DNA of 28,364 bases from Psammoneis japonica (taxonomy: Eukaryota), in NCBI GenBank assembly GCA_008632985.1, contig QPGO01000315.1, positions 62,001 to 90,364 of the forward strand, written 5' to 3'. Below the pieces are notes generated by a model that ran no database searches, was not told where the DNA came from, and worked only from the letters and a program-made list of their open reading frames with translations. Shown here piece after piece: positions 5,524 to 26,022 of the stretch. Made by a program: the position numbers and the translations under genes. How positions within the stretch are numbered: position 1 is the stretch's first letter; each line of letters opens with the position of its first letter.

Positions 5524-6482
5524 TGGATCCAAGTGAGGACGATACTCTAGAGAAACTTGTGGCGAATGAGGCCATACCAAATGCCATATTCGCCTCATGG
5601 GGGATTCCAGCAAAGACCTCTGGGACTGCGTTTTTAATCAACTCCTGGACACACGGGAATGAATCCATGAGGACTTCATCTAAAGTGCCTAATCAGTAGT
5701 TCCAGGAGTGACACGTGGCGTTGTGTCAGTTGTAGAACAAGGCAGGAGAGTCCATGCAGCAGCAAACAGACCCCTTAAAAAAATAGAAGCCCTCCAGAAG
5801 CAGAAGAATAGCAGAATGAACGTGGCAGCGAGTGTTTTTTCCCCGTGCCAGCGGTGATATTCTTTTGACAACTTTTGACCTGGGCCGAGCTGTTGGGAGT
5901 GAACCTTGGCTAACTCACGACGGGTGTTCTTCCGAAAATTAAACGGGTAGAACTAACACAGGATTGGTGACAATCACAGGCATTATTTGAAGGCTATGAG
6001 TACCTCCACTAGCTGCAGCGCTGGAGCCACGGTTGGCTCGCTTGATCAGGGCGAGAAGAGAACTAGTTAGAAGATGCGAGCTCAGTTTTGGCTTTGTGTT
6101 TACATGTGTGGGCTGCCCTTAACAATGGAATAGACTAGATGCAACGCGCAGCAATGAGAGTTGACGGTAACCACAATCCCACGGAAAACGAATGCCTTGG
6201 CCTCGTGCAGATATTTTTCAAGGAAGTCTAACCTTTTTCTGTTGAACAGCTCTAAAGCATGTCAGCTGTCAGCATGACTCTAATCCATCTGTTTTCGCAC
6301 ACCGCGAAGGCTTGTGAAGATTCATCACGTGTGATGCTGTCATCAGACTTGTTCCTCAAACTGGAAAACAGCGATGAGTGTTCATCTGATCTAACTTGGC
6401 CTAAGTACTACGTACTCTCTCTCTAGCTCTAGTAAGATTTGGATAGGAGATAGACTCTAGACCTAGATTCTGTCATCGTCTG

Positions 6483-8225
6483 ATGCATTTTGAATTTATT
6501 GAACATGGGGGTGCCGTCTGTCCGCCGCGCAAGAAGGAATTCCGTGGAAGCACGGGACTTGAGGAAAGGCGCGAAGTTCGCCTGTGTTTTCAGTCCTTCA
6601 GACCCAAGGTCGAGATCATCGCACTCACAATCCGTCTGGGGGGTCCGCAATCACAAGATAGAAGCATCAGCAACGATGGCGAGGACAAGCAACGAAGATG
6701 CGACGTATCGGTGGTAACTTTCAGCGCGGCTCTAATGAAGCAGCTCCTTTTGCAGAAAAGAAGCCATCTAGCTTGGGTGTTTTCATGTCACGGCGGCGGG
6801 AGTGGTGGCGGCCCGATGCAGTGGCGTGGGCATTCAGTGTCGGCTCTGGAAGCATTAAAAAAAGAATACGGAGAAGAAGAAGAAAAGTCGACGATCGTTT
6901 CAAAAACCGTTTGTGGTGAAATTGAAACCGATGCATTGACACTTTCGCGTTATCAGCTATTGGCTGTGCAGCCTAGGCTGCGCTTTTCTCGAATGAGGAA
7001 TTTTGAAGCCGATTCGTGGAATTTGATGGCTCACGAGAAAGCAGATGCCTTTGTCTATTTCGTTAAAATTGAGAAGACCGAATCATACCTCGTCGGTGAG
7101 TCCAGTTATTCAAACCGCACATGGGAAAATGATCGCTCTACGATTTCCAGGCTCCTTCGAAAGCCTTCGCTCGTAGAGAATCCTCGAAAACCATTCCTAC
7201 TCCTCGTGAACAACGACGAGGATGATGAGTTTGACGTTGAGCGTCTTGCCACCCTTTTTGGACTGGGCGGATATGGCTTTGAGCGTCCCTTTCGAGCCGT
7301 GTCGTACTCCTCCAACCAAAGCGATGGCACGTTAAGAGAATCTCTTGAATGGTTGGTCAATACGGCCAGTTCTTCTGATGACGATGTCACGGCCATGACA
7401 GGAAGCGACACCGAAGAGGGAGGATCTGTTGTCACATCCACGACAACTAGCACGGCCGCATCCTCATTCGTTGGCAGCGGCCATTACGTCTTGGACTATG
7501 AACCCACTCTGCTTGGCGGCAATCCAGTCCTACAGCGCTTCGAACCCATCAAGAAAGGAACCCATTGCCCATTTGCTCGCGCGGCCAAACTATGGGGCGG
7601 TAAGTTGGCGGATGAACTCACGCCAAGGTTGAATGTGGACAATCTCGAGGAAGCTGCTTCCTTGAACGCCGGACCATTGGCCGAGTTTGTGGCCAGGTCC
7701 AACAATGGAGAGCCACTCGATGGATTCTGTCTTGAGATCCCAGGAGGAGCATACACTGTTGAGAAACTCGGTGAGAAGGTTCGCGTGCTCTTGACCAAAC
7801 TCGCCGAATTGGATCCATCAGGGGAAAACGCAATGAAGATGGGCCCCTTCGACCATCCGCATTGGCGCTTTCGTTTCGCGGGAGAAGACTTCTTCCTAAC
7901 AACATTTTCGCCCGCATACGGAAAAGAGTCGTCTCGTTATTCCTTTGGGGTCCGGAGGAATTTCCTGCTGTTTCAGCCCATGACTTCCTTTGGCCGTCAT
8001 GGGTTGGTTAGTGATACTCCCGCTTCGGCTACAAACTGGAATACTCCCACCACCATGCGAGACAAGGCCCGCGTGGCTTTCAAGAAGAATGGATGTCCCT
8101 ACCACATCCCCGAAACGTTGCCTTACCCTGTAGCGGAGCACGTCGTGAAGCCAAAAAATGACGACGGGACCACCGTCGTTCGCTGGTGGGAGTCTCCCGA
8201 AGAAAGCCAGCAGCCAGTAGGATAG
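6483..8225 (+). CDS. Fusion protein: degenerate ARF-like small-GTPase fold plus C-terminal YqcI/YcgG-family domain
   Basis: 580-aa ORF; the true start is probably later, e.g. ATG 6735. The C-terminal THCPFA, WRFRFAGEDFFLTTFSPAY...SRYSF and LLFQP motifs match YqcI/YcgG. The middle segment (ADAFVYFV...PFLLLVNN...LFGL...DGTLRESLEWLV) parallels ARF/Arl secondary-structure motifs. Confidence 0.7.
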   Translation: MHFEFIEHGGAVCPPRKKEFRGSTGLEERREVRLCFQSFRPKVEIIALTIRLGGPQSQDRSISNDGEDKQRRCDVSVVTFSAALMKQLLLQKRSHLAWVFSCHGGGSGGGPMQWRGHSVSALEALKKEYGEEEEKSTIVSKTVCGEIETDALTLSRYQLLAVQPRLRFSRMRNFEADSWNLMAHEKADAFVYFVKIEKTESYLVGESSYSNRTWENDRSTISRLLRKPSLVENPRKPFLLLVNNDEDDEFDVERLATLFGLGGYGFERPFRAVSYSSNQSDGTLRESLEWLVNTASSSDDDVTAMTGSDTEEGGSVVTSTTTSTAASSFVGSGHYVLDYEPTLLGGNPVLQRFEPIKKGTHCPFARAAKLWGGKLADELTPRLNVDNLEEAASLNAGPLAEFVARSNNGEPLDGFCLEIPGGAYTVEKLGEKVRVLLTKLAELDPSGENAMKMGPFDHPHWRFRFAGEDFFLTTFSPAYGKESSRYSFGVRRNFLLFQPMTSFGRHGLVSDTPASATNWNTPTTMRDKARVAFKKNGCPYHIPETLPYPVAEHVVKPKNDDGTTVVRWWESPEESQQPVG

Positions 8226-8743
8226 GGCCCTACAACTTTTAAAGCAGAGGAAATGTCGGCGCGTTCCGATTAGCCTTCCTGGCGACGTCACTTGATCACC
8301 TTACACATGAGTTGAGCCACCTCAATAACGTACACGTAGCCAGTAACAACACAAATAAGTACATTTTATCATTTTTTTTCATCAGTTTCCAAACTTAGGG
8401 CATCGACGCATTGAAATCGTTTACACTGTTGTTCTAATACTAGCTATGAAAAAATTGTTGAGGTTTATGCGTGGGCGATATGAATGATGCGGTATTTTCT
8501 GCTATATTATGCCAATCACCTATTCGCGAGCCTACGTCTGTTTGCCATGCTATGGAATGCTTGTGGGTTTCTCGTCACACAGTGCACAATTGCACGATTC
8601 GCTACATTCCTCCTAAAATAACTAGATTTGTTCATGGCGAAAGCGTTCTATTGAAAATTGATATCTTGTATTTTTTGTGACAGACATGTGAATCAGATCA
8701 TCCTTGGTTGATTCGGAGGATAGAAGACCAATGTTTCACGGGA

Positions 8744-9157
8744 TTAGAACCAATCCGATTTTGGGGGTGGAACGTCCCATCCTCTCCACCATCCAGATTC
8801 TTCGTGCGCGCTGGTCCATGGGATTTGTGATAACTCGCCATTGATCCGCACAACGTACATTGGCGCCTTGTTTATGCCTCGACCTTGGGGTTCGTACACC
8901 ATTCGCGATCCCAAGACTTGGCACTTCATCGGCCTGCTGGGGTCTCCATCAAAGTATGTCATTAGCTTTTGACCCACCGGATGCTGCTCGTTATAGGTAC
9001 CAAAAAGCGTCATGTCGGACGTAAAGACCTCCGGATATGCTTTCTGCATCGACTTGAACCAGGCTTCCAGATCGGCGACAGGAATGAATTTTCCTTCATC
9101 AGAAGGAGTTGGATCGTCGTCTTGGTCCATGAACATGGTATCAATCGATTTTTTCAA
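8744..9157 (-). CDS. Hypothetical protein (137 aa)
   Basis: Intact ORF with protein-like composition and normal TpA/Tyr content. No motif recognised; start codon uncertain. Confidence 0.5.
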   Translation of the reverse strand: MKKSIDTMFMDQDDDPTPSDEGKFIPVADLEAWFKSMQKAYPEVFTSDMTLFGTYNEQHPVGQKLMTYFDGDPSRPMKCQVLGSRMVYEPQGRGINKAPMYVVRINGELSQIPWTSAHEESGWWRGWDVPPPKSDWF

Positions 9158-9508
9158 TTGCGGTCGTACTTCCTCTGCCCTTGTTCACTAACTGCAACCT
9201 CAACACTCTAAAGAGAGATTTGTTCGATGCAGGACCAGCACACGTGATTGAGCAACACGAATAAATTTGGAATTTGCCAAACACACCCCATCGCGCGCGC
9301 GAGAGCGAGCTTGAATACTGTATGACGTCACGTCGGAGGGAAATATTTACGACTCGGATTCCGGCCGGAGGGAGTTCAATTCAAGCCTTGAATTTGCTGA
9401 AGCTGCCAACACGTGGCACTAAAAACAGTGCACACCCTAAATCCAAATCCCCGTTCTCTTGCCTGTAACTGTAATCGAATTGCATCTGGGCCCAGTATCG
9501 GTGCGGGG

Positions 9509-11285
9509 ATGTTGTTGCTGCAGCTGCTGCCATGCAGCCAGAATAAGAGCAGCGCCTTAGTTCGAAACATTTTGACGTTATTGGCAATTCACCTTTTGGG
9601 TGTTTCACATGCGTGGACGCATCAGACGTCAGCCAGAACAGTGACACATTCAAGACTTTTAACAACACGTCTACTAGGCACTAGCACAGTGATTTTGATA
9701 ACGTGCCGCGATTCCACCCAACGTTTGAATCTCAACCAGTTGAAGTTTCCACAGTCTTGGCCTCGACTCCTCCGTCCCCCGATGCCGAACAAGCGCTGGC
9801 GTCGCTCGCCGCAACGACACTGGCACTCTTGGCTGGAGACGAAGAAGCCGCCGAGGCCTTGGCCGGAGGAGCCCAGCGAAAAAAGGAACTGATTCACAAG
9901 GCGTTCCAAGCGTACGATGTCTGTGAGAGTGGGATACTATCGGTCGACGAAGCTCGAGCGCTCTTTGTTGATTTAGCTAGAAACATTGTCACGGACCTGG
10001 CCACGCCGTCACAAGATCGAAGCAGCGAAAACTTGGCATCCTATCGGCCGTCGGAAAACAAGGCGTCCGTTCCGGGTGTGGCACGGGCTCATGCCAAGCG
10101 GGTGTTGGCCATGGACGAGACGGGCAATACCATTGAACGAATTGCCACCAAGCTGCTGCTATTGGCCGATCCCGATGGGGATGGTCGAGTTTCGCTTCGG
10201 GAACTTGCGAATTTGTTTGAAACGGTACAGTCTGCAAACACTCAAGCGACAAACAATGCGGATAGTCCTTCTGTGGAAACGTTTCCTCAGCCTCTCTTGG
10301 CACTTGCGGGATCGTTGCAATTGTTGCCTCCCGTTAAGGAAATGACGTGACGGAAGCAGCCTCCAAGGCAACACACTGGAATGTTGGGGTGCCCGGAGAT
10401 GATCACACTTTGAAACGAGTCGAATTGGAAAAGGGCGTCTCCATTGTTGGTTTGGGCCGATCTGCAGACGCTTCAGCCTACTTTTTGCCAGAGCTCGGCA
10501 TTGTTCTGGATGCCGGAATTCATGTCAAGTCGATTCGACCCAAGACCGTCTTACTAACCCATGGACACCGGGATCACATTGCTGCGCTTCCAACCCACGC
10601 GGCGGTTGGATCCAGAATTCTGTGCCCCAAACCGATTGAACCGTTGGTGCGGAGATTTCTATTGGCAGAAGCGCAATTGAACTATGGAGACAACACTCAG
10701 ACGGATGAGGAAACCATTGAGGCACTGGGGGATTTTGATTTACACGCGGTTGTGGATGGAGACGAGATTTTGTTGCCTCGAGAGTTCTACCAGGGTTCTC
10801 CAACGCCACTTGGTGTACAGGTCTTTCGAGCGCCACACAAGGACGGTGTGCCGGCTGTATCGTATGGGCTTTATCGAGCCAAGACGAGACTCAAACCCGA
10901 GTATGCCAAGCTGCCTAAAAACGAGCTAGGGGGTCTAATTCAAAAGGACATTGCCATTACAGAGAGTTACAATGAAGGGCTGCTTTTCTATACCGGAGAC
11001 ACTACGATCAATCTCCTCAAGCAACGATGGAAGGAAATACTCCCAAAGTACAAGCACGTCATTCACGAAGTGACATTTCTTGGCGAGCCAAGCTCTGAGC
11101 TGGACGAATCGACGAGAAGGAAGGGTCATACACATTACTCTCAGCTTCATCCTTGGATTTGTGCATTCCCCGAAACGACTTTTGTCTGTGTCCATTGGAG
11201 TCTTCGGTATTCCAGAGAGGATGTGCTGCGTTTTTTCGAAGAAGAGTATGGAGGTGTTCCCAAGAACGTTGTATTGTGGGTGTAG
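9509..11285 (+). CDS. EF-hand plus short-form (TM-type) tRNase Z / metallo-beta-lactamase fusion with an N-terminal targeting leader
   Basis: Hydrophobic leader ending ...LLGVSHA-W and a Ser/Thr/Arg-rich segment. Two EF-hand loops (DVCESGILSVDE, DPDGDGRVSLRE). MBL motifs LDAG, THGHRDH, RLKPEY, YTGDT, HEVTF, GHTH, VHWSLRY. Needs 1-nt frame corrections near 9685 and 10336. Confidence 0.8.
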
Positions 11286-11385
11286 GGAGATGGAGTCCTA
11301 GTAGAGCAAGAGGATGAAACAAACATGGAGAACCTAACTTCGACGTATCCCTTGTTCATCGGTAGCAATGGCTCCCCAAGACACA

Positions 11386-11423
11386 AAAGCAACCCAATCG
11401 CAAAGAAAGCAACCCAATCGCAA
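11386..11423. repeat. Short direct repeat (AAAGCAACCCAATCGCAA x2, period 20)
   Basis: Read directly at 11386-11403 and 11406-11423. Confidence 0.85.
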
Positions 11424-12153
11424 GCTTAGCGTGTGGTTTCTCCGCGGATGTCATCGCTACTGATGTGCCCGCTGCCTGCAGAGAGGATTGCTGCAGTAGT
11501 TTCGACTCCTTATGTTCCAACTCCTCTCACGACGGATGGCGACAGCCTTCCAAAGGCAATGATGCGCCCGCTAGTAATTGGAAAGCAGCGTAAAAATTGC
11601 TCTCGTCGTCCCAGTCGAACGAGCACGATTGCTATGCTCCATCTTAACTACAGGTTTTGTTGTGCTCGTCATGACTTTAACGGTTGCTGCGACAACTGAC
11701 CCAAGTCTGTTTGCTTTGGTGCTTCCGGAATTTCCCTTCCACGTCATTCTCCATGTCTGCGGTGATAGATTTTCGACTAGCAACAGACTTATGTAGTGAT
11801 TATATTTTCTTCAAATGCAGCTTCTTGCCCATTGGTCAGTACTCTAGATGCAGTGGAGTAGACTAGTTGTGGGCAAACCTTGCGTCTTCTTCCTTCTTTT
11901 GTTGGCAGAAAGCAGCCATTGAGGGCTCCAAATCAGAAACCAGAGCCATTCGGAAGACTGCGAAAAGATGGGATACAGCGTTACCGTATTTTGGATCGAC
12001 TACGCCGTTGTCGAAAATCGCAAGTACAGGCGCAATCCTCGGCAACATCACAACATTGAAACGCATATGGTTGTGGACACACGAGAATTATGTACATTTT
12101 AATTAACACAAAGAACCTTTACTTTGAGACAAAAAGCACGGTGTTGTTCACTA

Positions 12154-13252
12154 CTAATGCCGAAACATTTCGGATCGGATTTCATCTTGATTGAGACCCT
12201 TGTCGTACACGCGGAAAGAGTCCATATATCCGCGAAAGAAGTTCCTATCTTCGGCCCTCGTCTCTCCCAAGTAGCTGCCAATGTTAAGTGGTGCATTATT
12301 GGAACAATACGGTCCTTTGGTCACGATTTCAATCTCTGAGTCCAATTCTCCATTGATATAGACCTTCAAGGAATCGCCGTCATTGGTTGCAGCAATGTGA
12401 GTCCACGACTCTGTTGGAACTGGTTTGGTACCTTTTAGCAAAGTGAGATTCTTGCGAGCACAACCGCCGAAATAGCCACCGAACCTGACAGTGCGGGACT
12501 CCTTGTTGATGGTGAGCCAAAATGCTGACGTTTTTAGAGCAATAACATATGCAAACTTAGCGTACGTGGTATCAGAGTACCGAACCCATGCCATCATGGT
12601 ATATTTATCCATCTTGAGGTTTTTGGCTTCTTGGATAACCATTTGATCATCCCTCCCGTCAAGGCTGGCTCCATACCTGGAATGACCTAAATTGGTGTAA
12701 GATAGCCTGCCTCTTCCTGGTGCAGTTGAGCCATCCCATCCATTCGCGCCCGTGTCCTTGAAGAGGGTGTTGTAAGAATCAAAGCGGTATTCGAGAATCG
12801 GTCCAACACGGCTTCAAGCCAGGGACACTGATAGATTTGGTAGTAAGCTCCACACGGTTCTTACCAACATACAAGGGGATGTCTTCAGGCGATTTGATAG
12901 TCAAACATCCACTCCCATCGTTCTTGACGACGAATTTGAAGCCATCCTTCTTTTTCTTCGCGACGTTGATGGTAAAGTTCTTGTTCAACTCAACCCCAAC
13001 GGCTTTCTTGTTGATCGCAATGTCAGATGTATCTGCCACCAGCGTGCCATCGACTGCAACAGGGAATCTGCCGCCAGCGGCTTCTAGGTACCACTCAGAG
13101 GAAAAGCACTTTCGCCAGAGAAAAACTGCCCTGTCCTTTCGTTTATTGTACGAAGGCTCACCACAAGTTGGTTCTACGTTTGCGGCAACACCATGAGCTC
13201 CGATCCAAAGCAGGGTGGAGATGGCTGCCAGGTTGCTGTAAATGATCTTCAT
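12154..13252 (-). CDS. Secreted protein with a C-terminal LamG/concanavalin-A-like domain
   Basis: Signal peptide MKIIYSNLAAISTLLWIGAHGVAA. After frame changes at about 12730-12810 it reads LEYRFD...ASLDGRDDQMVI...YTMMAWVR...WTHIAATNDGDSLKVYINGELD...LNIG...FRGYMDSFRVYDKGL, a typical Laminin_G_3 pattern. Confidence 0.85.
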
Positions 13253-14066
13253 CTTGTCTCGTGCGTTGCTCTCTTTGAATTTTGTGAGACGATTTCAAGC
13301 CAAAGCTTAGATCAACCATTGAAGAATAGAGTGAAATGACTTCGACTTTGTTTCATTGCTGCCGAACAGCAGTATAGTTTTTACTTTTGGGTTCGAGGAT
13401 CAAATGCAGGGAAAGAGGGAAAGTCATGCTTGACTGAAGCTTGTTCAAGCGTGAATGCTTGCAAACATTTATAGCCGCGCACAGTCACGTTCGTTTGTTT
13501 GGATTGCGGTGGATAGAAAACATGTCAGCTTGATCAACTTTCGCGGTTCGCGTTTGTTCTTGGCGGATCGCGGGCGGGTTCGCGGTGAAATGGTGAAATG
13601 GCTTCCCGCATGCATTGTTGCTTGAATTCTGCTTTGCTGTCAGTTTGTCTGTCACTCCACAGATGGAATGAAGAGAGTCGTCGCCTGTTTGGTTTTGTTT
13701 CTTGCATTGCTGGACCCTGTGTTCCAGTTTGGGATCAATTGCAGGGAAAGTGGGGCAATCATGCCTGAGCAAGGAGAGTGTGAGTGAGGCAATTCTTGCG
13801 AACATTGCATGTCTGCAATGCTGGCTTTGTGGCATCTTCATCTTGTTGTTTCGGCGCCGCTGGCGCGTGTTTGGGTTGGAGTGGGCTGCACAGCAGCGAA
13901 TTTGAGGAATGTGTTGGCTTTGATTGATTGGTTTTCAGCACTCACTTTTGCAATTTGAAGATCCATGGGAATTGCCATTTGCACTTTTTAAGAATGACTT
14001 CGTGCTTGGAAGGACCCCATGTCTGTCCCGCTGCCCCCCCGGTCTCCTGCTGCCATGCCGCCGGGG

Positions 14067-14387
14067 CTTGATTCGAGCTGCTCTCAAGCAGTTGACCAGA
14101 GTCATGGACACACTGAGGGCTGCTGCTCTGCCAACATGTGCATGTGTCCAGCTTTGTTCTCTGGGGGTGGCCTTCTCCATGCACTGGGGGCTGCTGTTCA
14201 TCCATGAACAGCGGCTTTGTGCATGAAAGGGAGGGCCCCTGCATCTGCTCCGCTCATCGGTCTGTCACTCAACCTTGACTCAAGCTGCTCTCTTGCAGTT
14301 GGTCAAAGTTGTGGCTGGACACATGGTGCTGCTGCTCTTCTGACTTCTGATGTGAGTGCACACCCTGCTTGTTCTCTGGGGAGTGGC
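14067..14387. repeat. Diverged direct repeat of about 105-115 bp (14067-14171 and 14274-14387)
   Basis: CTTGATTCGAGCTGCTCTCAAGCAGTTG...GCTGCTGCTCT...TTGTTCTCTGGGG versus CTTGACTCAAGCTGCTCTCTTGCAGTTG...GCTGCTGCTCT...TTGTTCTCTGGGG. Confidence 0.75.
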
Positions 14388-15481
14388 TGCACCCTGTTCT
14401 TGAGGTGCGCAAATGAGAGCAACGAGCTGGCTGAAGAGCAAAGCATGCTGCTGATCCCCCCTGAGCATCATGAGCTGAAATTCTGTGGTGAAATGCCATT
14501 GTCATCTCTCATCATTTCAATCTCACATGATGTGGCCAAGTGTGGGTCACTTTTTTGCCATGTGGTGCTCAGATTTGCTGAAGACTGGGGAGCATGATGG
14601 AAGCAAAATGACAGGGCCACAGGCCACAGGCCACAGGGAGGGTCATTTTAAGGTGTGCAGAGATGTGTTTGCACCCAATGCATTCTGGCCATGGGCAAGG
14701 CTCCATGTGGCATTGGGCTCATGCAAAATCTTGGTGTGAGCACTGCAGCACAAAGCTGCCAGCAGATGACGAAAATGTGCCAATGACCGAGACAACAGAA
14801 AAGGAGAAGTGACATTTTGTGAGCACCCCAAAACTTGTGCACACTTCAAACACATCATGCCCAGCTTGCCCCAGGGCTTTTCCTGATGGTCAGACACCAA
14901 AGAAAACATCCAGCCCATTTTTGTTCTGGCAGGAGGCGAGTGCAGAAATGAAAAGCCTTTGATGGGATTTGAAGTTTGTCACACATGGGTGCATGTGCTT
15001 TGAGGACTGTGCTCACTTCACATCATTTCATTTCACATTGCATGCATGAAGGGCCTTTTGTCCTGCTGCACGCACACTGAGTCCATTGCTCCACATGATC
15101 CACCCCAGGGGCTGTTGTTGGTGTTTTGCTGCTCTGGGAGGTCTGCAAGGATGACTGTGAAAGGAAGCAGCTGTGATCATGGTCTGCATCTTGGGGCTCA
15201 GGGAACACTTTCTCATGTTCATTCACCAATCCTCTGAAATTTGATCGGGCCACCCAACAGACACAAAATGAGAAAGGTTTGGGGGAACTGTCGTCACCTC
15301 TTGCGATGGGTTCCAGTCCTGGGTGGGACTCCGTGTGACATTGGGCCCGTGGAATTCTGCGTGCGAGCTCCGCAGCAAATTTGTGCTGCAATGAAAATGT
15401 GAATGATCGCCAACAGAAAAGGAAGCAATTTTATGAATGCATCTCCTCCTTCACACTTGGAGCACATCATTGATGGTTTGC

Positions 15482-16430
15482 CCGGGTGTGTTCTTCAGAC
15501 ATTGACGCTGCATCCACGGATTCACCAGGCAAAATTGGCAAAAGTCGGGCATGGCAAAAAGTGTGCATTTGGCCCAAATCGATCATTGAGTGCAAATGGT
15601 GGCATCTTTGGGGTCCCTTTAGTGAGCCGAACATGCGCATTTCTCATTTGACCATCACAGGTCCGTCTCATGGGGGGTGTCAAAACGTCGTGCTTTGACG
15701 CGTCTCGAGGATTAATCGTCACACACAGGGGTCACCGATCTTGTGTTTGTTGTTGTTTGTCATCCCAGACGATCACTCATTCGTCAGACATTGTCGGCAA
15801 AGAAACGTGACAACTGCGCTCAGGTGACTTTTATTTGAACATTTAGTGTGAATTGAGACCACGTCATTGATGATGTCATGAGGGTCTTTCTGGGCAGGCG
15901 TGCATCGGAGCTGCAATGCACTGCCTGACACCGGCCTTGTTTGGCGTCAAAGGCTCAACTAAAATGGCAAAAGATGATGTCAGCAACACATTTGGGAAAA
16001 TGTCCGACGTGTCTTCATGTCTCACGGATTTTATTTGTGAAAATGACAAACACTGCATTTGCGGTCAAATGTGGAAACAAAATCATTTGGACTCATCAGC
16101 AGTGCAATGCTCGCGGAAATGATGCGAAAAACAACAAACACTGGATGTGCGTGCTGCACAATTTTGATCAGATCAGTGATGCCTGCAATGTGATCAGCCA
16201 TTGAGGTCACATAAAATTGAAAATTTACACACCAAAGCACGACATTTTGACACACCCGCAAGACGACCTGTGATGGTCAGATGAGAAATGTGCATGTTTG
16301 GCTCACCAAAGGGACCCCAATGACACCATCATTTGCACTCAACCATCGATTTTGACCAAATGCACACTTTTTGCCATGCCCGAGTGTTGCCTGGTGAATC
16401 CGTGGATGCGGTGTTAAAGAATGCACCCAG
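15482..16430. mobile_element. Non-autonomous TIR (MITE-like) element: about 200-bp inverted repeats at 15482-15697 and 16233-16430
   Basis: GCATCCACGGATTCACCAGGCAA...CGGGCATGGCAAAAAGTGTGCATTTGG...GGGGTCCCTTT...TGACCATCACAGGTC occurs on + in the left arm and on - in the right arm. Outer ends are CCGGGTG and CACCCAG. No clear TSD. Confidence 0.75.
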
Positions 16431-17341
16431 CGTGTTTTCATTCTCACAAATGTTGAAAATGGAAAGCCTTTGGCTTCGCAAAACAGGGAGTGTGAAACCA
16501 TTTCGTAGAATGCAACACGTAGAAATGTGCGTGCGTGACATGCAATGCAATCCAAAAAACTGTTGATGTCACAGTGCAGCAGTGCGAGGTCCCACCCAGA
16601 GCTGGAGCGCGTCTTGTGCGCTTGCTTGCGGTTTTTTTAACTCACTGCTCTGCTTGCAAGCAACCCAAAGCACTGCCAGCTGTGGGCTTGGATGTGCCAG
16701 CGCAGCTCTTCAGACCAGAGACAGAGAGCTCAGCAGCACTCGAGAGGGTGGCAAAGCCTGGTGTCTTCTGTGGACAAAGCTTGCAACGCACAGCTGAAGA
16801 TTTGTGTCCAAGTCAAATCTCTGGTTTCTGGCTCCTGGCAAAAGTTTTGGTGCTCCTTCTGCTTTCCACCACAGCTCTTGCCAGGCTGCGGCAAACCAAA
16901 GGCTTTGATTTGAACACAAGTGCTGGGTCCAAAGTGCAGCCTGCATGGCTGGTGGAGAGCCCCAGTGCTCTCTTGGCTGCCAGCAGCCAGTGTGTTTCTT
17001 TCTTTCTGTGGGCCAACACAAGCTCACACAAGCAAAAATGATCTCCCACACCCCTCTATTTCCACTGGCTGCAGTGTCAGCTGGCTGGTGGTGCAGGTGT
17101 TGTGACACCTGGGAGACTGGCGGGCAACAGCTTTGGGTTGCCACCAAACCTGCACTGACCATCGAGTACAACGAAATGACAAGATTCCAGATTCCTTTTG
17201 ATTCACGAGTTCAATTCTGCATTCGTGACTCGTGACTCGAGTCAAAAATCAACAACCAACAACCAACAATAGAGGTACAAGGTACAACCACTGCGGCGAC
17301 AACATTTCGTAACAACAGAACAACAACAATAGCAAGACACA

Positions 17342-17911
17342 ATGGCATCATCCAGTCAACCCCCTAAATTCATCACCAAAGCAGGAGTTACCAGACTCAA
17401 TCCAGCATATCTCGAATGGAAAAAGAAGACTGGTGGCGTCGTCCCAAAAGCTGCGCCAGCAAGCGAACCACCAATAGACAAGATGCTTGTGCAAGTGACA
17501 ATTCAGCAAGGCGAAGGCTTGGTGGCCAAGGATCGTAATTTACTCGGTAAAAAGACAACGTCGGATCCATACGTGGAAATGATTTTGGTGTCGAATCGTC
17601 AAGACCGCAAACTCGGTAAAACACCCACGGTTTACAAGAATTTGTCGCCCACTTGGAATCACAAAATTCAAACGACAATTGGATATTTGGGAAACGCGAA
17701 TGCACAACTAGCCTTTCGTATTTACGACGAAGATAAATTGTCTGATCCTGACAGTATGGGTGTGGTGACGCTTCCTCTTGTTTGGAAGGAGAGTCATACC
17801 AACGAGTGGTATGAAATCCCAAAAAGTTCTGCCAAGAATGCCTCAGGAAGGATACAGATTGAAATTCAAACCCAACTTCATCGTCTCGAGAACCTTCGAC
17901 CATATGTGTGA
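17342..17911 (+). CDS. C2-domain protein
   Basis: 189-aa intact ORF with GEGLVAKDRNLLGKKTTSDPYV, GKTPTVYKNLSPTWN, FRIYDEDKLSDPDSMG and WYEI, i.e. a C2 fold with acidic Ca-binding loops. Confidence 0.92.
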   Translation: MASSSQPPKFITKAGVTRLNPAYLEWKKKTGGVVPKAAPASEPPIDKMLVQVTIQQGEGLVAKDRNLLGKKTTSDPYVEMILVSNRQDRKLGKTPTVYKNLSPTWNHKIQTTIGYLGNANAQLAFRIYDEDKLSDPDSMGVVTLPLVWKESHTNEWYEIPKSSAKNASGRIQIEIQTQLHRLENLRPYV

Positions 17912-18078
17912 AAAGGAACCGTTTCGACAAATGGGACTATTGTTAGGAAGTGGAAATAGATAGGATTAGCAACTTTTGGCTTGAGTAGTATTTTATTCTC
18001 ACGTGTGTAACTTTCTCTCTAGTAGAGATAGCTTTAGCATCACTCTACTCAATTTTAGTCTGCGCTCTACAAAGGGCT

Positions 18079-18160
18079 ACTTTGGTCACTTTGATGCGTC
18101 TCGACAACTTTCTTTCGTAAACTTTGATCACTTATGCGTCTCAACAACTTTCCTTCGTAA
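18079..18160. repeat. Tandem duplication of about 41 bp
   Basis: ACTTTGGTCACTTTGATGCGTCTCGACAACTTTCTTTCGTAA followed by ACTTTGATCACTTATGCGTCTCAACAACTTTCCTTCGTAA. Confidence 0.85.
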
Positions 18161-18269
18161 ACCTTGTCCAACCTTGAGTAACCAAATGTCTTGTGGCCGC
18201 ACCACGACAAAACCAACACTGCTAGATGAACGCCTGTGCTGCCACATCCTTGACCGCTGCGTTTTTTAT

Positions 18270-18800
18270 CCATGGGCAACAGCGCCGGGATCTTTTCTGC
18301 ATAGGTGGGGATGTCTTGAATCAAATGCAGTAAAAAAACTCCTTGCTCCACTTGTCCAAACACCACGTCTGCTGCACCCAGTTCTGGGCAAAACCTCGTG
18401 TTGCAAAATGCCAAACATTGGCAACAGATCCAATGTCCGATGCATCAAGAGTCCCTTGGTTGAATGAGAAAAATTCTTCTTTCATCCCCCCCCTTTTCAA
18501 TCCAAATCGGTGCTCCCATGATTTGTCCTGCATGGCACATCGCTGTCCCATCACCTGGACTTGTCAGCTCCAAACTGGGCAAATTCCCATCCTCCAATGA
18601 CAATTGCCCATGCAATGGCAGTGGGTTGTCATTGTCCATGGTGGGATTGCACTCAATGCTGGCATGCTTCCAAAGTTAGTCAAACAACAGTCCACCACAG
18701 AAAACCCTGTCAGTGGGAGGTGTGTCGGCACATCATCATGAGTGTGAGGTGTCCCATCTGATGTTGACATGCACGCATCCATGGCAACCTTTTGTGCAAT
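18270..18800 (-). pseudogene. Possible decayed cyclophilin-like coding relic
   Basis: Fragments in different frames (TSPGDGT, KEEFFSF...GSVAN, FCNTRFCPELGAADVVFGQVEQG...IQDIPT) occur in the order of cyclophilin motifs (GDGTG, DENF...SMAN, FITT..CPHLDGKHVVFG.V.EG). By-eye similarity only. Confidence 0.3.
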
Positions 18801-18939
18801 TTTTTTGACAAAAAATCCACAATGTTTTTTGTGTCCATCTCAGCAATTAAGAGCAGCATTTCATGTGCTGCAACTCAACCAACTGTGCATCCCCACCCGA
18901 GTCATCAGCACAGCCCACTCCAGCCCCACCAACAAGGTG

Positions 18940-19215
18940 TGACAGAAATTGAAGGCAAATGGCAAGAATTCAAACAATGACTCCTTGCTGCTGTCTAAAT
19001 GGCAGATGAGTCTCCACTCAGAGACCGTCACAGGAGCCAAAAGACGTGCAAGTCAGTGCAATCGGGCTGCTGTTGTCATTCTTGTGAGCCTTGTGGCTCG
19101 AAAGCAAACTGCATCGCGCACGAACGCGCGGAACTAAAGCACACAAAACTGTGCACGGCAAACTAAACAGCGCGCGACATTTCGCGCGCACCTGAATCCT
19201 GTTCAAATCCTGTCA
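18940..19215 (-). repeat. 3' LTR (276 bp)
   Basis: Direct repeat of 25768-26022 with TG...CA ends. Preceded on the minus strand by a short purine run (GGGAAG), a possible PPT. Confidence 0.95.
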
Positions 19216-22200
19216 CTTCCCAGTTTGCTTGAGGAGCCACAGAAACAGATTCGACTTCAGATGGAATGAAGTTCCAGAACATGAGGGGGCGGAGAAGGCC
19301 CCAGATTTGGGAGCAACCCCAATGCTTGCTGAGAATGTCAGCAGGGTTGCGGGAGCCTTCGATGAAGTGGAGCTCAAGGCAACCAGAGGCAATTGCCTCA
19401 TGCACACAGTGGAATGACAGTGCGGTGTGTCGCTTGTGTAACTTGGAGTGTGGGATGGTGGCACTGTCTACAACCGACTTGTTGTCACCGAACATGCAAC
19501 TGATGTTGTGGATCGGGACGCCAAGGCAGCGCAGGGTGATGCGCAGGTCGACAATCTGCTCGACACAAGTCCTTGTGGCAACAAATTCAGACCCGCAGGT
19601 TGCAGTCTCCATGGTGGCTTGCTTCTTGGAGAACCAATCAGCCGGGAATTTGTTGAGGAAGTGGAGCATTCCCATGACAGAGCGTCCGGTGAGCATGCAA
19701 TGACACAAGTTTGCATCGACGCAGTGGGTGGCAGTGACGAACTTGCCAAGGGGCGGTGGAGCATCCTTCGGGATCATCTCTTCTGCTTTGCCGCACACGG
19801 AATGCATCCATTCACAGGCCGGAGCAGGGAGATCCAAACAGTCGGGCTCTTCTGTGCGAACGCAGAGAGCGCCGTGTCGCATCTTGGAGAGGCACCCACA
19901 GACACGTTTGGCACGATCCAAGTGGCCTTGACGGGGCGCAGCTCGGAAGCTAGAGAGTGACATGACGGCCGTGGCAATGTCAATTCAACCAAGGGACACT
20001 GCCCATTGGAGTGAACCAACAAGAGACTGGAACTTGTGAATGCCATCGGGCCCCAGCAGTTCGGAAGTGTCCAGTTCGGGGTGGTCACCCTTCTCCAGAG
20101 GTGACAGGGCATTGGCGGCAGGTTTCTCCCCAAACAGTCGGGTGCAGCTGTTGACCATGCGCTTGATGCACTTGCGCGGAGACAGGCACAAGGTGCCATT
20201 GGGATCCCGGGAAAAGTCGCAGCCCAGATGGAACTCAATGGGTCCCGCACCCTTGAGCTTGAACTTGCACTTTTCCGTGAGAGTGTCGACGAAAGATTGA
20301 GGGTCCTTCACAGCAATGGCAAGGTCATCCACATAGACGGCAATGCACCCACAGTGGTCGCCGTTCCTGCGCATCCAAATGTTGGGTTCGGCGCGGCAGG
20401 GGAAGAAGCCTTCAGCTCGCAGGCAGTCGGCAAAGCGCTCGTGCCAGTGGAGACCGGAGCTGCGCAGTCCATGCAGGGCCTTGTGGATGACAAGGATGTG
20501 TCCTTCGAGTTTGCCAAATTTGGGTCCGGCTGCAATGTAGAGCTTCTCCTTGGTGGTGGCTTCAAGGTGGGCATTGCCAATGTTGGTGGCCCATGTCTCC
20601 AACTCGTTGAGTTCGGCCAGGAAAATCATCAGCCGAAGGCCACGGAGGGAGACTGCTCCGGAGCAGACACTGTCGATGGGTGCGTCCGTGAGGTGCCCAT
20701 CGGCTGCGAGTCGTGCCTTGTGGCGACCGTCGTGTTTCACGTTGCACACTGGGTGCACTCGGATCTTCTTGTGTCCCGCAGGAGGAGCGGAAGACTCGAA
20801 GGGCCCGCAGTCATGGAAGACTTCGTATTCCTCGAGTTGGTCCATCTCGAGATTAGTTGCGTCTCCCCATTTGCGGTTGCCGTTGCATTCGTCCAGTGAC
20901 ATGGCATGTTTGCAGTTCTGGGGAACTTCGCATCCGCACTTGCAGTGAGGTGCAGTGCGGAAGGAGCAAAGCTTGGCTTGGTTGGCCATGCGAAACAGCT
21001 TCTTCTGGCGCCTCGCGATGGTGCGGAACCGCTTCCAGCCATCAGTGTCGAGAAGTCCGTTCTCTCGTGCATGGATGGCGCAGGTGACGGGGTCTTCCTT
21101 GGCGATGATGGCAAGAGGCTCGGACGTGATCTCCCCACTTTCCCATTCAAGCACAATGTTGTAGCTTGAGCCTTTCCAGGTTGGGTCATGAGGCTTCAGA
21201 GGTCCTTCGTGTGACACGATGCGTCGAAATTTCCAAACAGCAGTGTCTTCGTCTTCTTGCTCAATGTGATTCATGATGTCGTTGCAGGCAAGGACTTCCT
21301 CGTGTTCATCGTTGTTGACAGAGCAGACGAACTTAGTGAGCTCGGGATTGCCGTTCACTTTCCATTCGTGGTCTTCAATGGCCTTGACGATGCGAGCCAT
21401 GTGGCATTGTCCGTCCTCTTGTGGCTGCATGAGGAAGGTGCGTCCGATGATGTCTTGCGGATCGAAAACTGGCATCTTGGGTGTCCTGATCTCCCCATCA
21501 GGAGAATCGACGGGGTTGTCGTCATGGCGAGATTTGATGATGGGTTCAGGTGGCTCCCCATCAGGAGGATCAAGACGCAGGTTTCGAACCGCAGGATCGG
21601 TGGTGGTGGATCATACGTTGGACCGGCCGAGGATCTTCTGAGTCTCATCAGAGAGAATCTTGAAGGTCATCTGGTGACCAACGTGCTCAGCAATGCCAAC
21701 AAAGCGTCCACGCAACTCACGGGATTCGGACAGCCAATCGGAGTCATCGAGGTGGAAGCACACGGGTTCCCACCAGTGAAAGCAAAGCAATGGGCTGATG
21801 TCTGGGGTGGAGCCAGTGAGAGTCTCAAGGGGTGTGTGCCAGTGGAGACGTGGAGACACTGCATGGTTGAGTGTGAAGCACACGCACATGAGCGCCAGCA
21901 GCCATGTGTGGGCAGGCGAACCGAAATGATCCATGACAGTGTTCGCCATGCGCTTCACGGTCTGGTGTCGACGCTCGGCAAAGTTTTGGTGTTGCTGGTG
22001 AGGCTCACTTTGCCAGCTGGAGATGAAGAGGGCTCGTAGGATCCCAAGCACCTTGTTGCTGATCTCAACTTGAGCACGGTCGCCAATGAGTTTGGATGGG
22101 GCACCACGCTCACGGATGTGATCCTCGAGTGTGTTGACAAACTCCTTGTCCGTCTTGGTGCCACAGACGTCAGTGACGGTGGACTCGGTGCCAACAAACA

Positions 22201-24832
22201 GTTGGGCGCTGGTGCAACCAGAGTCGACGGCTGGGGTGTCGGCACAAACGGTGTCAGTGGCGACAGGCTCGTTGCGGCGGTGCACATCAAGGGCGGGGTT
22301 GGGTGATTTGCAGGCCTTCCTAAGGTGTGTACCGGCGGGCATGCGGACGTGCTGCGTGGTGCAGTCAAAAGTACGACGAACCGCATCGGTGGGTGGGAAG
22401 CCAAAGTGAGGCCGAAGAGACTCGAAGGGGGGGTCCTTGGGCTGCACAGTGCGCTCCGGGGGCGGAACGTCGTTGTCCTTGGGGTCAATCGCGTGTAGAT
22501 GACACTCGTAGAACACGTCGTCGTTCGGAATGAGGTGATCATCGAGGGCGGACGCGTGATCGGCAGACAAGGAAGCGGACATGATGGTCTCATTGACAAC
22601 GACACGATGACGGTAGTTGCCGCATTCGTCAAATGGGTTGGCAGTGGGATCGTCCTGCAGGTCAGAGATCGCGTCGCACCACTGGTTGTCGTCAGTGACA
22701 GAGTGATCGAGGACGGAAGGATCCCATGTGTCATCACCGGTGAGGATGACATGGGGCAGGGTGTCCCATTCGGCATCAGTGCAAGGTCGCATGGCAACAC
22801 AAGGCAGGCCGCCCTTGATGTCAATGGGGATGACACAGCCATCAGGAGTGGCAATGCGTTGCAAGCCGTCAAGCACCTTGACAGAGTGATCGTTGACATC
22901 CTGTTTGCACCACTCGAGCTGGCCGCAGGAATGGATGGTCTTGCCCTTGCCCGTGCATGCGCACTGATGGAGGATGGCGATGACGGGACCACGCTGGGTC
23001 TCAATGACGGCACCCGCAGTGACAATGGGGATGTCCACCAATTGATGGTCGTCAATGCCCTGAACGTCGACTTGGCAAGAGGTGCGTGCAATGACGCGAA
23101 CGTCGTCGCCAGCAATGCCGCCGTTGGCCCCACGATCGACTGGAGCACCAGTGCGTGTGGAGCGATGAGCAGAGGCAGAGCAAATGACATTGTGGTCAAC
23201 AACGCGACGGTGAGTGCGGCCGTTGAGTTCCATGTCATCGGCAGAAGCTGGCGGGGTAGAGGGAGCGGCAGATGGCCCTGGTCGACTAGCATTGGGGGCT
23301 TGGTTAGGAGACAACAGACGTTGCAGATCACCGGGTGGCAGTGGCTTGCGCTTGGTGAGGTGCACCAGGATGGGATTGTCCGAAGTGGCATCCACACTTG
23401 GAGCGGAGTCACCAGAGTCAGCAGGAGTCGTGTTGGACAAGTTGACATCACCGTCACTGCCAAGGCGTTGGTCGTGAAGGTTGGCCGCAACGGACTCATG
23501 GAAGTTGCTGGCTCGCGGGTTGCGGGGAGGTGGACGAGAATGCTCAAGGATGATCGCCTTGGAGGAATGGGGCAACGAATCCCAAATCCGTTGGTGGTCG
23601 GGAGGGAGACGTTTCCATTGGTCACCGGCGAGGCTGGGACCACGGGTGCAGGCAGCATTGGCCTGAAGGACGTCAATGTCGCTGTCAATGTCGCAGAACA
23701 CATCGTCGGACGGTTCCTCGGAGCAGACGTCGTGTGCGTGTGTGGCGAGTTGGGGAGCTCGAGGTGTTGTCTTGGGTTGAAACGCACTGTCGCATTGAGC
23801 CGCCACGGAGAGGAGCAAGCCACAGTGTTGATCGTGTGTGAGGCTCTTGCCACTCTGCGTACGATGCTGATCAGCTTGGTTCTTGACAGCACGGAGTTCC
23901 TCGACAGGATGCACGGCATTCTCGAGCATGACACGCTTCTGTCCTTCAGAGAAGTGGTCACTGGCCGGGATGAGTGCCTCGCACTTGCGCAACTGATCTT
24001 GCCAATGAAGGATGAACCCGTGGGTTGGACCTTTCCAAGTGCCATCACCAAGACGTGCGGTGGTGAGGTGCGTGAGCAAAGTGGAGGACTCGACAGATGC
24101 GCGGGTGGAGGCGAGCGCATGCTCAGACAAGGCGCGGTGGATGGTCTGGGCATCAGAAGACCCCACATTTTCGCGAATGAGAGCCTTGCCCTTGTCAGTG
24201 AGAAGGATGCATTCGAAGACGGCGAACATGTGCTTTTGCTGTTCAGCAAAGAGCAGTTTGTCTTCGGGGCTGGTCGGTTTGTACAACGAGTCTAGAACGC
24301 ACTTGACGTCTTGGGCACGGGCTTGTGCCACAAGTGAGGTGTGCCAAGTGTGCCACTGCTTGTCGGATTTGAGAGCCGTGAAAGCGGTGGGGTCACGCTT
24401 GATGCCTCACTTGAAGTCTCACACCGGGTTGCGTGCCTTGGTCGGGTTGGTGACATGCGGAGGTGCGAGGGGTGAGCTGCTGACGGACACAGAAGACATG
24501 TGGTCGGGGCTGAGGCGGCAGGCAAGGAACTCGTCATGCGTGAACAACGAGGAGTCATTGGCAACGTCAAGACCTTCATGTGCTTTGACAATGTGCAGAC
24601 CAATTAGAGCTGCTAACATGTTCTTATAACCGCGGGGCAAAGGGATCACATTGGTGCCGTTGTCGTGCTCAAGCGAGTCGATTTGGGATGGCATGAACGT
24701 GAACAGTTCTTGATGCGAGTCCGTGCCGTCTTGGGTCAAAGCCAAATGAAGAGGGCTCCCAGCACCTTGGGCAAGCACGGCTCCAACAACATGCTCGAAG
24801 CCATCGGTTTGTTGCTGACGAGTGAGAACCAT
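19163..24832 (-). pseudogene. gag-pol polyprotein in a single reading frame, broken by four in-frame TGA codons
   Basis: gag DFK*GIKRDP...AQARAQDV; protease VDRGANGGIAG; integrase ATDTV...GDRAQVE...SEPHQQHQNFAERR; RT KHDGRHKARL, KALHGLRSSG, YVDD; RNase H VDANL...TGRSV, GSEF, FGDNKSVV, NPADILSKHW. The ORFs 24419-24862, 21611-24331, 19985-21475 and 19163-19963 are all in one frame. Stops at 24421-24419, 24409-24407, 21613-21611 and 19987-19985. Confidence 0.95.
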
Positions 24833-24881
24833 GGCAGACAAAAGTGGTGTCAGGACAAGCAATTCTTGTTGGGAAGCGAAG

Positions 24882-24944
24882 GCAGACTTGAAACTTGGGT
24901 GAGAACAGACTTGACTTGAAACAGACTTGACTTGAAATCTTGAA
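24882..24944. repeat. Short ACTTGA/AACAGACTTGACTTGA repeats in the retrotransposon 5' leader
   Basis: GCAGACTTGAAACTTG...AACAGACTTGACTTGAAACAGACTTGACTTGAAATCTTGAA, about 50-110 nt upstream of the gag ATG. Confidence 0.75.
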
Positions 24945-25750
24945 CTACCTTAAAATCAGAAGTCGCTGGGCTGTGCCATCCCGTTCATTGTTGAGTGCTA
25001 AACTTCCCATCCGGTCCGTAGAGTTGTGCCGGCACGTCCGAACCCGCAGCCAGCGGCGCTTTGGGTTGCTTGCGAGCGGAGCAGCGGGTTGTAAACCCCT
25101 GCAGGCAAGCTGACCAGAGGTGGACAAGACCCCCGAACCATTCTCATTTTATGTCGGTTGGATTTCCCGATCAGGCTGGCCAGTTGATGTGGGCGTCAGG
25201 CGCTGTGGACGAACGAACAAACGCGGGAAAACACCCTCGCCCCAACGCAGGCTGCAATCACGGCTGCTTGCTCTCACAGTCGTCCTCGTGGACCTGGCAG
25301 AACTGCAGAGCACCAGCAGTCTGGGGTAGATCAGGTGCAATGGACTCGGTGTGCTTGTAGAGTGGTGGCAAAACCGCAGTCCGAAGAGTGGGTGCAAGTT
25401 CTTGGCCGTGAAGATGTGTGCATGTGTGTGTCTTCAGCGACGAAGATCCTTGAATGTGTGGGGTTCTTGACCATCAACCGATGAATGGGCACATCAAGGG
25501 ATGAGGATCAAGGATGGACTTGGACATGACCGTTGAATGCATGTCTTCAGCGATCAAAGGTGGCACAATCAATCCAGATGTCCAGCGGCAAGGGGACTTG
25601 ACGGTGACGTTAAATTCCTGCCGATGCCTGGCATTGAACGCGCGTAGACTTGCCGATGTACGTAGAACATGTGTGGAGGTCCACGCAGAATTGAAAAGCG
25701 TCGTCGGTAAATCAACGACGACGATGGCGGTTGCTCAATGGGTTGACAAT

Positions 25751-25767
25751 GAGCAAGACTGTTGATC
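25751..25767 (-). promoter_or_regulatory. Putative primer-binding site complementary to a tRNA anticodon arm
   Basis: Directly abuts the 5' LTR. Minus strand reads GATCAACAGTCTTGCTC with no TGG; its complement reads CAAGA-CT-GTT-GA-TC, which resembles a tRNA anticodon stem-loop. Confidence 0.5.
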
Positions 25768-26022
25768 TGACAGAAATTGAAGGCAAACGGCAAGAATTCA
25801 AACAATGACTCCTCACTGCTGTCTAAATGGCAGATGAGTCTCTGCTCAGAGACCGTTGCAGGAGCCGAAAGACGTGCAAGTCGGCACAATCAGGCTGCTG
25901 TTGTTATTCTTGTGAGCCTTGTGGCCGCGAACGCGCGGAACTAAAGCACACAAAACTGTGTGCGGTAAACTAAACAGCGCGCGACATTTCGCACGCACCC
26001 AAATCCTGTTCAAATCCTGTCA
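25768..26022 (-). repeat. 5' LTR (255 bp; about 21 bp shorter than the 3' LTR)
   Basis: Direct repeat of 18940-19215 with TG...CA ends, followed by the TSD AGGTG. Confidence 0.95.

Follow-up and report, generated by a model that had tools for sequence, protein, structure and literature searches.

The window analysed here is a 28,364-nucleotide stretch of the genome of the diatom Psammoneis japonica (contig QPGO01000315.1, positions 62,001 to 90,364), in which a domain almost devoid of TpA dinucleotides (13520-17160) lies between two divergently oriented host genes. To its left is a duplicated host gene region with laminin-G-like open reading frames (ORFs; 12147-13537, minus strand), whose upstream ORF has its first ATG at 13252, and to its right an intact C2-domain gene (17345-17911, plus strand; PF00168, E = 1e-17) bordered on both sides by sequence of normal TpA content (17170-17344 and 17912-18330). 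The domain contains 16 TpA, an observed-to-expected ratio (o/e) of 0.07 by dinucleotide count, where about 130 would be expected at the density of the left-hand flank (P(≤16) = 9e-37). Only 2 of these fall within 13520-15430 (o/e 0.02), exactly as a preliminary description of this DNA had reported; the 'about 17' that it gave for the whole domain was right as to scarcity and off by one as to number, a seventeenth TpA requiring inclusion of position 13514 or 17167. CpG is depleted as well (o/e 0.44), with CpA and TpG in excess (1.77 and 1.70), and the strong CpG loss claimed earlier therefore holds for the domain as a whole but is far from even, the o/e falling to 0.0-0.27 where the sequence is oldest, standing at 0.40 for the left flank and reaching 0.58-0.93 in the younger inserted elements described below. 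For comparison, TpA o/e is 0.53 over positions 1-13519, level with the island around the C2 gene (17170-18330; 49 TpA, o/e 0.54, CpG 0.94).

Two-rate change points on TpA place the left border at 13515 (interval 13475-13565) and the right border at 17270 (interval 17220-17275, with lone TpA at 17057 and 17167), and the borders are as sharp as first described, the change points resolving at a scale of 50-160 bp. They lie about 260 bp upstream of the left gene's ATG and 75-180 bp upstream of the C2 ATG, at the upstream ends of both flanking genes. A further change point after the C2 gene (18335, interval 18225-18385) opens a second TpA-poor domain, whose last change point is at 27450 (interval 27165-27455).

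An assembly error is made less likely by a public sequencing run (X1), although this run may derive from the window's own sample: its contigs reproduce 13709-14528 and 14551-15052 without a single difference (822 and 502 bases compared). A second run (X2, type not on record) has contigs covering part of the left gene (12806-13503) and of C2 (17297-17859) and none on 13575-17229, where missing cover proves nothing. In run X1, two contigs cover 14551-15052, each at half depth (31.7 and 36.1); one reproduces the window exactly, and the other departs from it by 56 substituted letters and 28 gap positions in 486. The pair may be two alleles, about 11% diverged inside the domain.

Nested transposons and unmatched flanking DNA

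Searches of the 91-Mb assembly containing the window show that the domain consists of dead transposons nested in one another and of flanking DNA without a match. As to copy number, which the preliminary description proposed to check, transposon matches make up 2170 of the 3641 bases (60%), and the other 1471 (40%) have no second match. At the centre are three nested miniature inverted-repeat transposable elements (MITEs) in place of the single element with terminal inverted repeats (TIRs) first noted. MITE A (15305-16613; about 397 bp when empty, with a 25-bp TIR and a 4-bp target duplication) is interrupted by MITE B (15502-16417; about 455 bp when empty, with inverted arms of about 200 bp and a TTAA target duplication), itself interrupted by MITE C (15724-16187; about 450 bp, with CAGG...CCTG ends, a TA target duplication and 34 genome matches). 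The element first noted is MITE B together with the MITE C that it contains. Twelve other copies of MITE A were examined, and the empty ones mostly have a single TTAA at the point of MITE B insertion. All three families show the traits of non-autonomous TIR transposons, namely terminal inverted repeats, a target duplication and many short non-coding copies, and from target-site rules we take MITE B to be piggyBac-like and MITE C Tc1/mariner-like.

The earlier claim of non-retroelement sequence is borne out by the MITEs, but the domain is not free of retroelements. Two plus-strand segments, 15054-15303 (nhmmer E = 4e-39 against a Copia leader profile; 0 TpA; 66% to 25116-25360) and 16612-16939 (leader and start of gag; E = 7e-41; 1 TpA, CpG o/e 0.27), form one old Copia 5' leader relic of about 580 bp, interrupted by MITE A and related to the Copia element at 18940-26022; no long terminal repeat (LTR) was found upstream of it with Copia profiles. 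Further left, 14678-14961 preserves one half of an old and much decayed element resembling MITE A, 62-65% identical to copies of that family (0 TpA, CpG o/e 0.17).

The unmatched bases (13520-14677, 14962-15053 and 16940-17160) hold 3 TpA, and neither the assembly search nor transition-tolerant alignment nor Copia profiles found a second match for them. The left flank (13520-14677) has 2 TpA in 1158 bases and a CpG o/e of 0.40, matches only itself in the assembly, and yields no Pfam family over the cut-off in six frames and no Copia-profile match; it contains internal direct repeats (13732-13806 repeats 13397-13469, and 14067-14190 pairs with 14274-14405). The right flank (16940-17160; 1 TpA, CpG o/e about 0.05) likewise lacks a second match, genome matches around it being confined to 16620-16770. 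Transition-tolerant alignment of the flanks to the fetched loci gave nothing past the known short repeat. That the flanks might be dead host genes is unsupported, a six-frame Pfam scan of 27 frames finding no family over the cut-off; a codon-bias frame predictor was uninformative on them, choosing the antisense frame in 7 of 8 Copia control windows.

Direction and timing of TpA loss

To read the direction of change, natural TA-rich sister copies served as references for MITE A (L163), MITE B (L014) and MITE C (L006). Pooled over the three window MITEs, 67 of 78 TpA sites have changed, 35 to TG and 32 to CA, with 11 kept and 6 further sites altered otherwise; by family, the sites now TG or CA number 20 of 24 in MITE A, 14 of 17 in MITE B and 33 of 37 in MITE C. 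CpG changed at 23 of 69 sites in the same MITEs (13 of 27 in MITE C), and the 990 other sites carry 55 changes (35 transitions and 20 transversions). One and the same site is TG in some independently erased copies and CA in others. Furthermore, the target duplications themselves are altered: in the window, MITE C is flanked by CA at either end where spared copies have TA, and MITE B has TTGA on its left and TTAA on its right where spared copies have TTAA. TA is therefore the ancestral state and the change postdates insertion, so that it struck both strands, in non-retroelement DNA, after the elements had inserted. Since all three non-coding TIR elements carry the signature relative to their TA-rich sisters, the earlier statement that the process is not limited to reverse-transcribed elements stands. 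Finally, TpA erasure is separable from CpG decay, as one MITE C copy (L122) has 32 TpA changes and a single CpG transition.

The second TpA-poor domain (18333-27170) contains a full-length Copia element (18940-26022, with LTRs and an AGGTG target duplication) surrounded by 1.75 kb that is poor in both TpA and CpG, for which the assembly search found no second match. We compared 12 of the 24 listed copies of this family. Among 176 TpA-bearing sites, 114 show TA, TG and CA, and never CG; at 159 sites, 1219 of 1908 TpA cells have changed (705 to TG and 514 to CA), and the resulting 64% is a lower bound, as each site was required to have at least one surviving TA. By comparison, 1386 of 6852 CpG cells have changed, and A>G in non-TpA contexts amounts to 0.8-1.7%: the process is specific to TpA. 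Each 7-kb copy has 2-9 private transversions, which set against the 64% of changed TpA cells bears on the local mutation rate only indirectly. The two LTRs of single elements have also diverged from each other, the twelve pairs having 42 TA/TG, 100 CA/TG (TA- or CG-derived), 53 CG/CA and 20 other differing columns, of which last only one is a transversion. As LTR pairs differ within one element, RNA editing by way of reverse transcription is excluded.

On the Copia sense strand TG outnumbers CA, which may reflect sequence context or an effect of transcription. TpA retention along the copies is patchy (0.672 against 0.595; 0 of 300 shuffles), and three copies (L073, L080 and L082) have in common a 5' stretch of about 35 nearly unmutated TpA sites, the remainder being mutated. 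The Copia flanks (18225-18934 and 26023-27170) are spanned across the target duplication by one minus-strand frame with few stops and abundant Cys, His and Trp. Pfam, phmmer and word-index searches found no homologue of this frame; phmmer, run against 1.84 billion proteins with a read-through frame from 18225-18932, returned 0 matches, and the word-index search with one frame of 26024-27169 gave 0 of 3353 candidates.

Mutational fingerprint

The process prefers a pyrimidine 3' of the changed adenine. Across nine copies or fragments of MITE C that have been erased, A>G change by 3' base was 33 of 45 for C (0.73), 83 of 160 for T (0.52), 32 of 84 for G (0.38) and 58 of 177 for A (0.33), the difference between pyrimidine and purine having p = 2e-6, and Copia gives the same order (C 0.46, T 0.36, A and G 0.21). 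Eight of the 16 surviving TpA of the domain are YTAR and none RTAY (Y, pyrimidine; R, purine), against a background of 113 and 133 of 484 (p = 0.03 and 0.009). Neighbouring changes do not fall in same-strand runs: 306 of 593 pairs at ≤30 bp are on the same strand (0.516, null 0.519), as are 0.497 at ≤100 bp (null 0.511). This lack of strand coordination indicates a distributive process.

Three candidate causes were rejected on these patterns. A processive, APOBEC-like deaminase of single-stranded DNA would leave strand-coordinated runs, which are not present. N6-methyladenine, a mark at ApT, does not fit, as an adenine preceded by C, G or A hardly changes, whichever base follows it, and GC-biased conversion would not yield three-state TA/TG/CA sites at one dinucleotide only.

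Sparing of the flanking genes

The sparing of the C2 gene and its flanks, noted in the preliminary description, is borne out at several levels. The best homologue of the encoded protein is from Nitzschia inconspicua (59%), and another comes from a metagenome-assembled genome of Bacillariaceae, both pointing to a pennate diatom; the protein keeps 7 Tyr in 188 residues, all at columns with Tyr in 10-24 of 24 homologues. At silent sites, the ratio of NNT|A to NNC|A is 9:16, not distinguishable from the 96:249 of ten other host ORFs (p = 0.37) and far from the 10:285 of three Copia ORFs (p = 1e-6), and TpA o/e is 0.78 in the non-coding 3' flank. Because silent sites and 3' flank keep their TpA, the sparing is not accounted for by selection on the protein alone, but could follow from selection that keeps the gene from being silenced.

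The left gene region is 82% identical over 1402 bases to a copy on another contig (C12), and both duplicates are spared, with 54 and 47 TpA. A few hundred bases upstream of the C12 duplicate (L032/L170), a TpA-poor block of unrelated sequence begins. Elsewhere the window encodes flavodoxin-domain (746-1996, minus), EF-hand (9685-10350, plus), metallo-beta-lactamase fold (10338-11285, plus) and YqcI/YcgG (6447-8225, plus) proteins; an open frame at 27251-28363 (plus) with GKT and DE motifs looks P-loop-like by eye, has no Pfam match and is TpA-normal.

Regional or homology-based targeting

The preliminary description had suggested that targeting follows 'a chromatin or homology domain'. The alternative to regional targeting is that single elements, or their homology, are recognised by pairing as in repeat-induced point mutation (RIP) or by small-RNA guidance, the spared copies being the youngest and the unmatched 40% of the domain either old repeats eroded past recognition or short leakage from repeats. 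Copy number fits this alternative for the multi-copy 60% of the domain. Sequence similarity does not: the 82% host-gene duplicate has kept its TpA in both copies, and five copies of MITE C that are 96-99% alike each retain 39-41 TpA, while the fragment L133 has been erased although it differs otherwise at only 2 of 137 sites. Erasure in this family does not follow distance from the reference, two copies with 52 other differences each (L126 and L129) being spared.

Erased and spared MITE C copies do differ in their surroundings. The 34 matches gave 29 scored loci, 17 of them near full length, and after two tandem duplicates of L134 and the part-mutated L121 and L124 had been set aside, none of the 4 erased full-length copies has more than 9 TpA in either 500-bp flank, whereas each of the 9 spared copies has at least 14 in one of them (Fisher p = 0.0014, with the threshold chosen after seeing the data). 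In three part-mutated copies (L121 on C10, L128 on C240 and L140 on C141) the TpA changes are bunched at one end, and in L121 and L128 this is the end adjoining the TpA-poor flank, which also speaks against recognition by homology. So does the rhizarian alga Bigelowiella natans, in which a reported target of a comparable process, an insert of nucleocytoplasmic large DNA virus (NCLDV) origin, is single-copy (bioRxiv 10.64898/2026.01.13.699255). The patchy TpA retention along Copia copies, described above, also favours regional targeting.

Several observations pull away from a regional mechanism. The flank test is null for MITE B (11 copies, rho 0.34, p 0.31) and for MITE A (10 of 12 copies, L168 and L169 being dropped as rearranged; rho 0.25, p 0.48), in samples chosen by likeness to the window's mutated copy, and is thus significant in one of three MITE families. 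Three MITE B copies (L012, L015 and L019) keep TpA within TpA-poor flanks, two (L013 and L011) have lost theirs next to a TpA-rich flank, and a TA-rich MITE A copy (in L170, on C12) sits within a TpA-poor block. Spared copies may merely be young; distance from the MITE C reference may reflect subfamily and not age; and the patchy retention in Copia may be inherited, since three copies share the patch. Moreover, both read sets (X1 record 7 and X2 record 16) contain, in one of them at full depth, a second copy of 18150-18597, about 80-86% alike with 61-64 differences, where the assembly search and an exact 24-mer search found only the window itself. As the assembly search missed this diverged copy, its finding of no second match is weak, and the unmatched flanks could be unrecognised old repeats. 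Their CpG o/e of 0.05-0.40, against 0.6-0.9 in the MITEs and young Copia, is what older repeats would show; because this loss exceeds that of young elements, the flanks resemble old silenced DNA that the elements entered and not a fresh halo.

Weighing the spared near-identical MITEs and host duplicate and the 1.47 kb of unmatched yet erased DNA against these points, we lean towards the region over the element or its homology at about 60:40 on sequence grounds, a reading that is favoured, not proven; that homology or element recognition explains the domain is unlikely, while being the most serious of the alternatives considered. The observation made in the preliminary description is confirmed and its interpretation partly supported. 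Among the other loci fetched with Copia, three (L097, L102 and L104) contain 1-2.4 kb blocks, apart from the Copia itself, in which TpA and CpG are erased and which match none of the fetched loci. Near-identical duplicates (L107/L108 and L022/L023, on contigs C41/C317 and C57/C196) are possible haplotigs, and L134, L135 and L137 lie in tandem on C141 in a block of about 20 kb.

A candidate adenine deaminase and its alternatives

We propose that, in transposons that have already inserted, TpA is converted to TpG or CpA on both strands by a putative adenine deaminase of the TadA/ADAT type, which would edit one site at a time, leaving inosine as the likely lesion. Its target would be silenced, probably CpG-methylated chromatin; the unmatched flanks would have lost TpA by the same route as the transposons, neighbouring genes, through their promoters and transcribed units, would likely set the borders, and the parallel, slower CpG loss would be ordinary decay of 5-methylcytosine. 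We give this whole chain a probability of roughly 0.5; the domain likely records the past action of a defence that edits DNA in silenced regions.

This enzyme type is proposed because the changes are pure transitions, prefer T-A-Y and co-locate with CpG decay. In tRNA, A34 is preceded by U33. The TadA and ADAT2-3 deaminases that act on tRNA A34 and the editors derived from TadA likewise convert A to G between pyrimidines, the editors preferring YAC or YAY over YAR (PMC12528748). The silenced state is suggested by another diatom, Phaeodactylum tricornutum, in whose transposable-element (TE) regions CG methylation is reported together with H3K27me3 and H3K9me2/3 (PMC9998398), and the present genome has 27 PF00145 matches. 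Certain features fit the proposal less well. The 5' base is strictly T here, whereas the engineered editors accept C too (PMC12528748). Nine PF00383 matches were found in the genome, including a duplicated dCMP deaminase, a TadA-like (L109), an ADAT2-like (L112) and a RibD-like protein; the deaminase matches are all routine, two fit no type, no effector is picked out, and an ADAT2-like gene is expected in any eukaryote. Sequence, furthermore, cannot separate a lesion on A from one on T. Separately, a deaminase-like domain in L111 (313-1785, minus) is fused in frame to a longer C-terminal part that by eye resembles a 2-oxoglutarate/Fe dioxygenase.

A lesion on T, that is, a thymine mark or oxidation product at TpA of silenced DNA that pairs with G and fixes as T>C, would predict identical substitutions. 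Oxidised thymine does mispair. In dinoflagellates, 5-hydroxymethyluracil made by TET/JBP marks repeats and silences TEs (PMC11572971); the texts consulted contain no statement of TpA-specific T>C mutagenesis, and the observed flank preference matches the TadA-like T-A-Y motif, so that we consider a thymine lesion improbable. A search of the genome for the Tet_JBP family found nothing, but its controls were silent too, and it is hence uninformative.

An error-prone polymerase of the Pol eta type, whose motif is WA (W, A or T), could introduce A>G errors in repair patches begun at deaminated methyl-CpG. The spatial overlap of TpA and CpG loss would follow, and AA>AG change (1.7%) is about twice that of CA>CG (0.9%) or GA>GG (0.8%). 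The 64% of TpA changed against 1.7% of ApA, the near absence of transversions at TpA, the lack of same-strand runs and the loss of 32 TpA with one CpG change in L122 nevertheless make this explanation still less probable than a thymine lesion. ADAR-type editing of RNA followed by reverse transcription, for which the preference of ADAR for U before A would speak (bioRxiv 10.64898/2026.01.13.699255), is scarcely credible, as it would affect retroelements only and leave LTRs identical, where non-retroelement MITEs and their target duplications are mutated on both strands and LTR pairs differ, and the same holds for a base-calling or assembly artefact or a compositional bias, given identical public contigs in the core and TpA-rich sister copies within the same assembly.

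Relation to known systems and significance

The closest described case is that of B. natans, where 211 changes are reported in an NCLDV insert that is silent and present in one copy and a further 20 in a virophage insert, every GC-biased change lying at TpA, at about 1000 times background and in some lines only, where clusters of TpA-poor, CpA/TpG-rich windows and TE-type Pfams are noted too, and where a deaminase of ADAT type (ADAT2-like) is only proposed (Mettrop et al., bioRxiv 10.64898/2026.01.13.699255). As far as that account can be compared, both cases involve TpA>TpG and TpA>CpA only, in resident nuclear DNA and by region, here on both strands; the B. natans target can be single-copy and silent. 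Confinement to foreign or mobile DNA with host genes spared is found here as well, though 40% of the domain is without a matched origin. The hosts and targets differ, B. natans being a rhizarian with NCLDV and virophage inserts and P. japonica a stramenopile with mutated MITEs, Copia and unmatched flanks, and here the domains are of kilobase scale, lie between genes and approach saturation (o/e 0.07, against a Rho of 0.45 for the B. natans NCLDV insert). The 3'-pyrimidine preference, the absence of strand runs, the CpG co-decay and the borders at gene edges go beyond what the available text of the B. natans account describes. In the literature searched, which leaves subscription journals mostly outside, we found no report of a TpA-specific A:T>G:C mutator in a diatom and no direct measurement of such a mutator beyond the B. 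natans preprint.

RIP of ascomycete fungi likewise mutates repeats by dinucleotide-specific transitions, making TpA from CpA. The two processes resemble each other in affecting repeat-rich regions on both strands after insertion, in sparing genes and in possibly reaching into flanks. They differ in direction, which here runs from TpA to TpG and CpA, as read from the target duplications and the three-state sites without CG; no same-strand runs are made here, and near-identical MITE copies and a duplicated host gene are spared. RIP acts at a premeiotic stage on duplicated sequence that exceeds roughly 80% identity and 400 bp, and the spared 1.4-kb gene duplicate (82%) and 450-bp MITEs (96-99%) are near these thresholds and of uncertain age. 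RIP has been linked to DNMT4/RID, and in P. tricornutum CG methylation of TEs is attributed to DNMT5a (PMC9998398). Such methylation would explain the CpG loss in the same domains and nothing at TpA, where loss precedes that of CpG and can occur without it.

Tentatively, and with the odds somewhat against so broad a claim, a nuclear adenine-editing defence of diatoms may read silenced chromatin and not homology, erase TpA across intergenic domains, spread from transposons into unique DNA and stop at promoters, acting as a natural base editor common to stramenopiles and rhizarians that destroys the TA and TTAA target sites of DNA transposons. The locus offers handles on such a process in its mutated target duplications, which fix direction and timing, in sister copies that give the states before and after, and in four borders, all within 14 kb, at which chromatin marks can be compared with the mutation scar. 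By removing TAA and TAG stops and Tyr codons, the process would distort TE dating, GC content and annotation in such genomes, and a natural DNA adenine deaminase, if true, would matter for base editing. A near-saturated diatom case on DNA transposons makes the process look like a general anti-transposon system of algae of the stramenopile-alveolate-rhizarian group and not a quirk of viral inserts.

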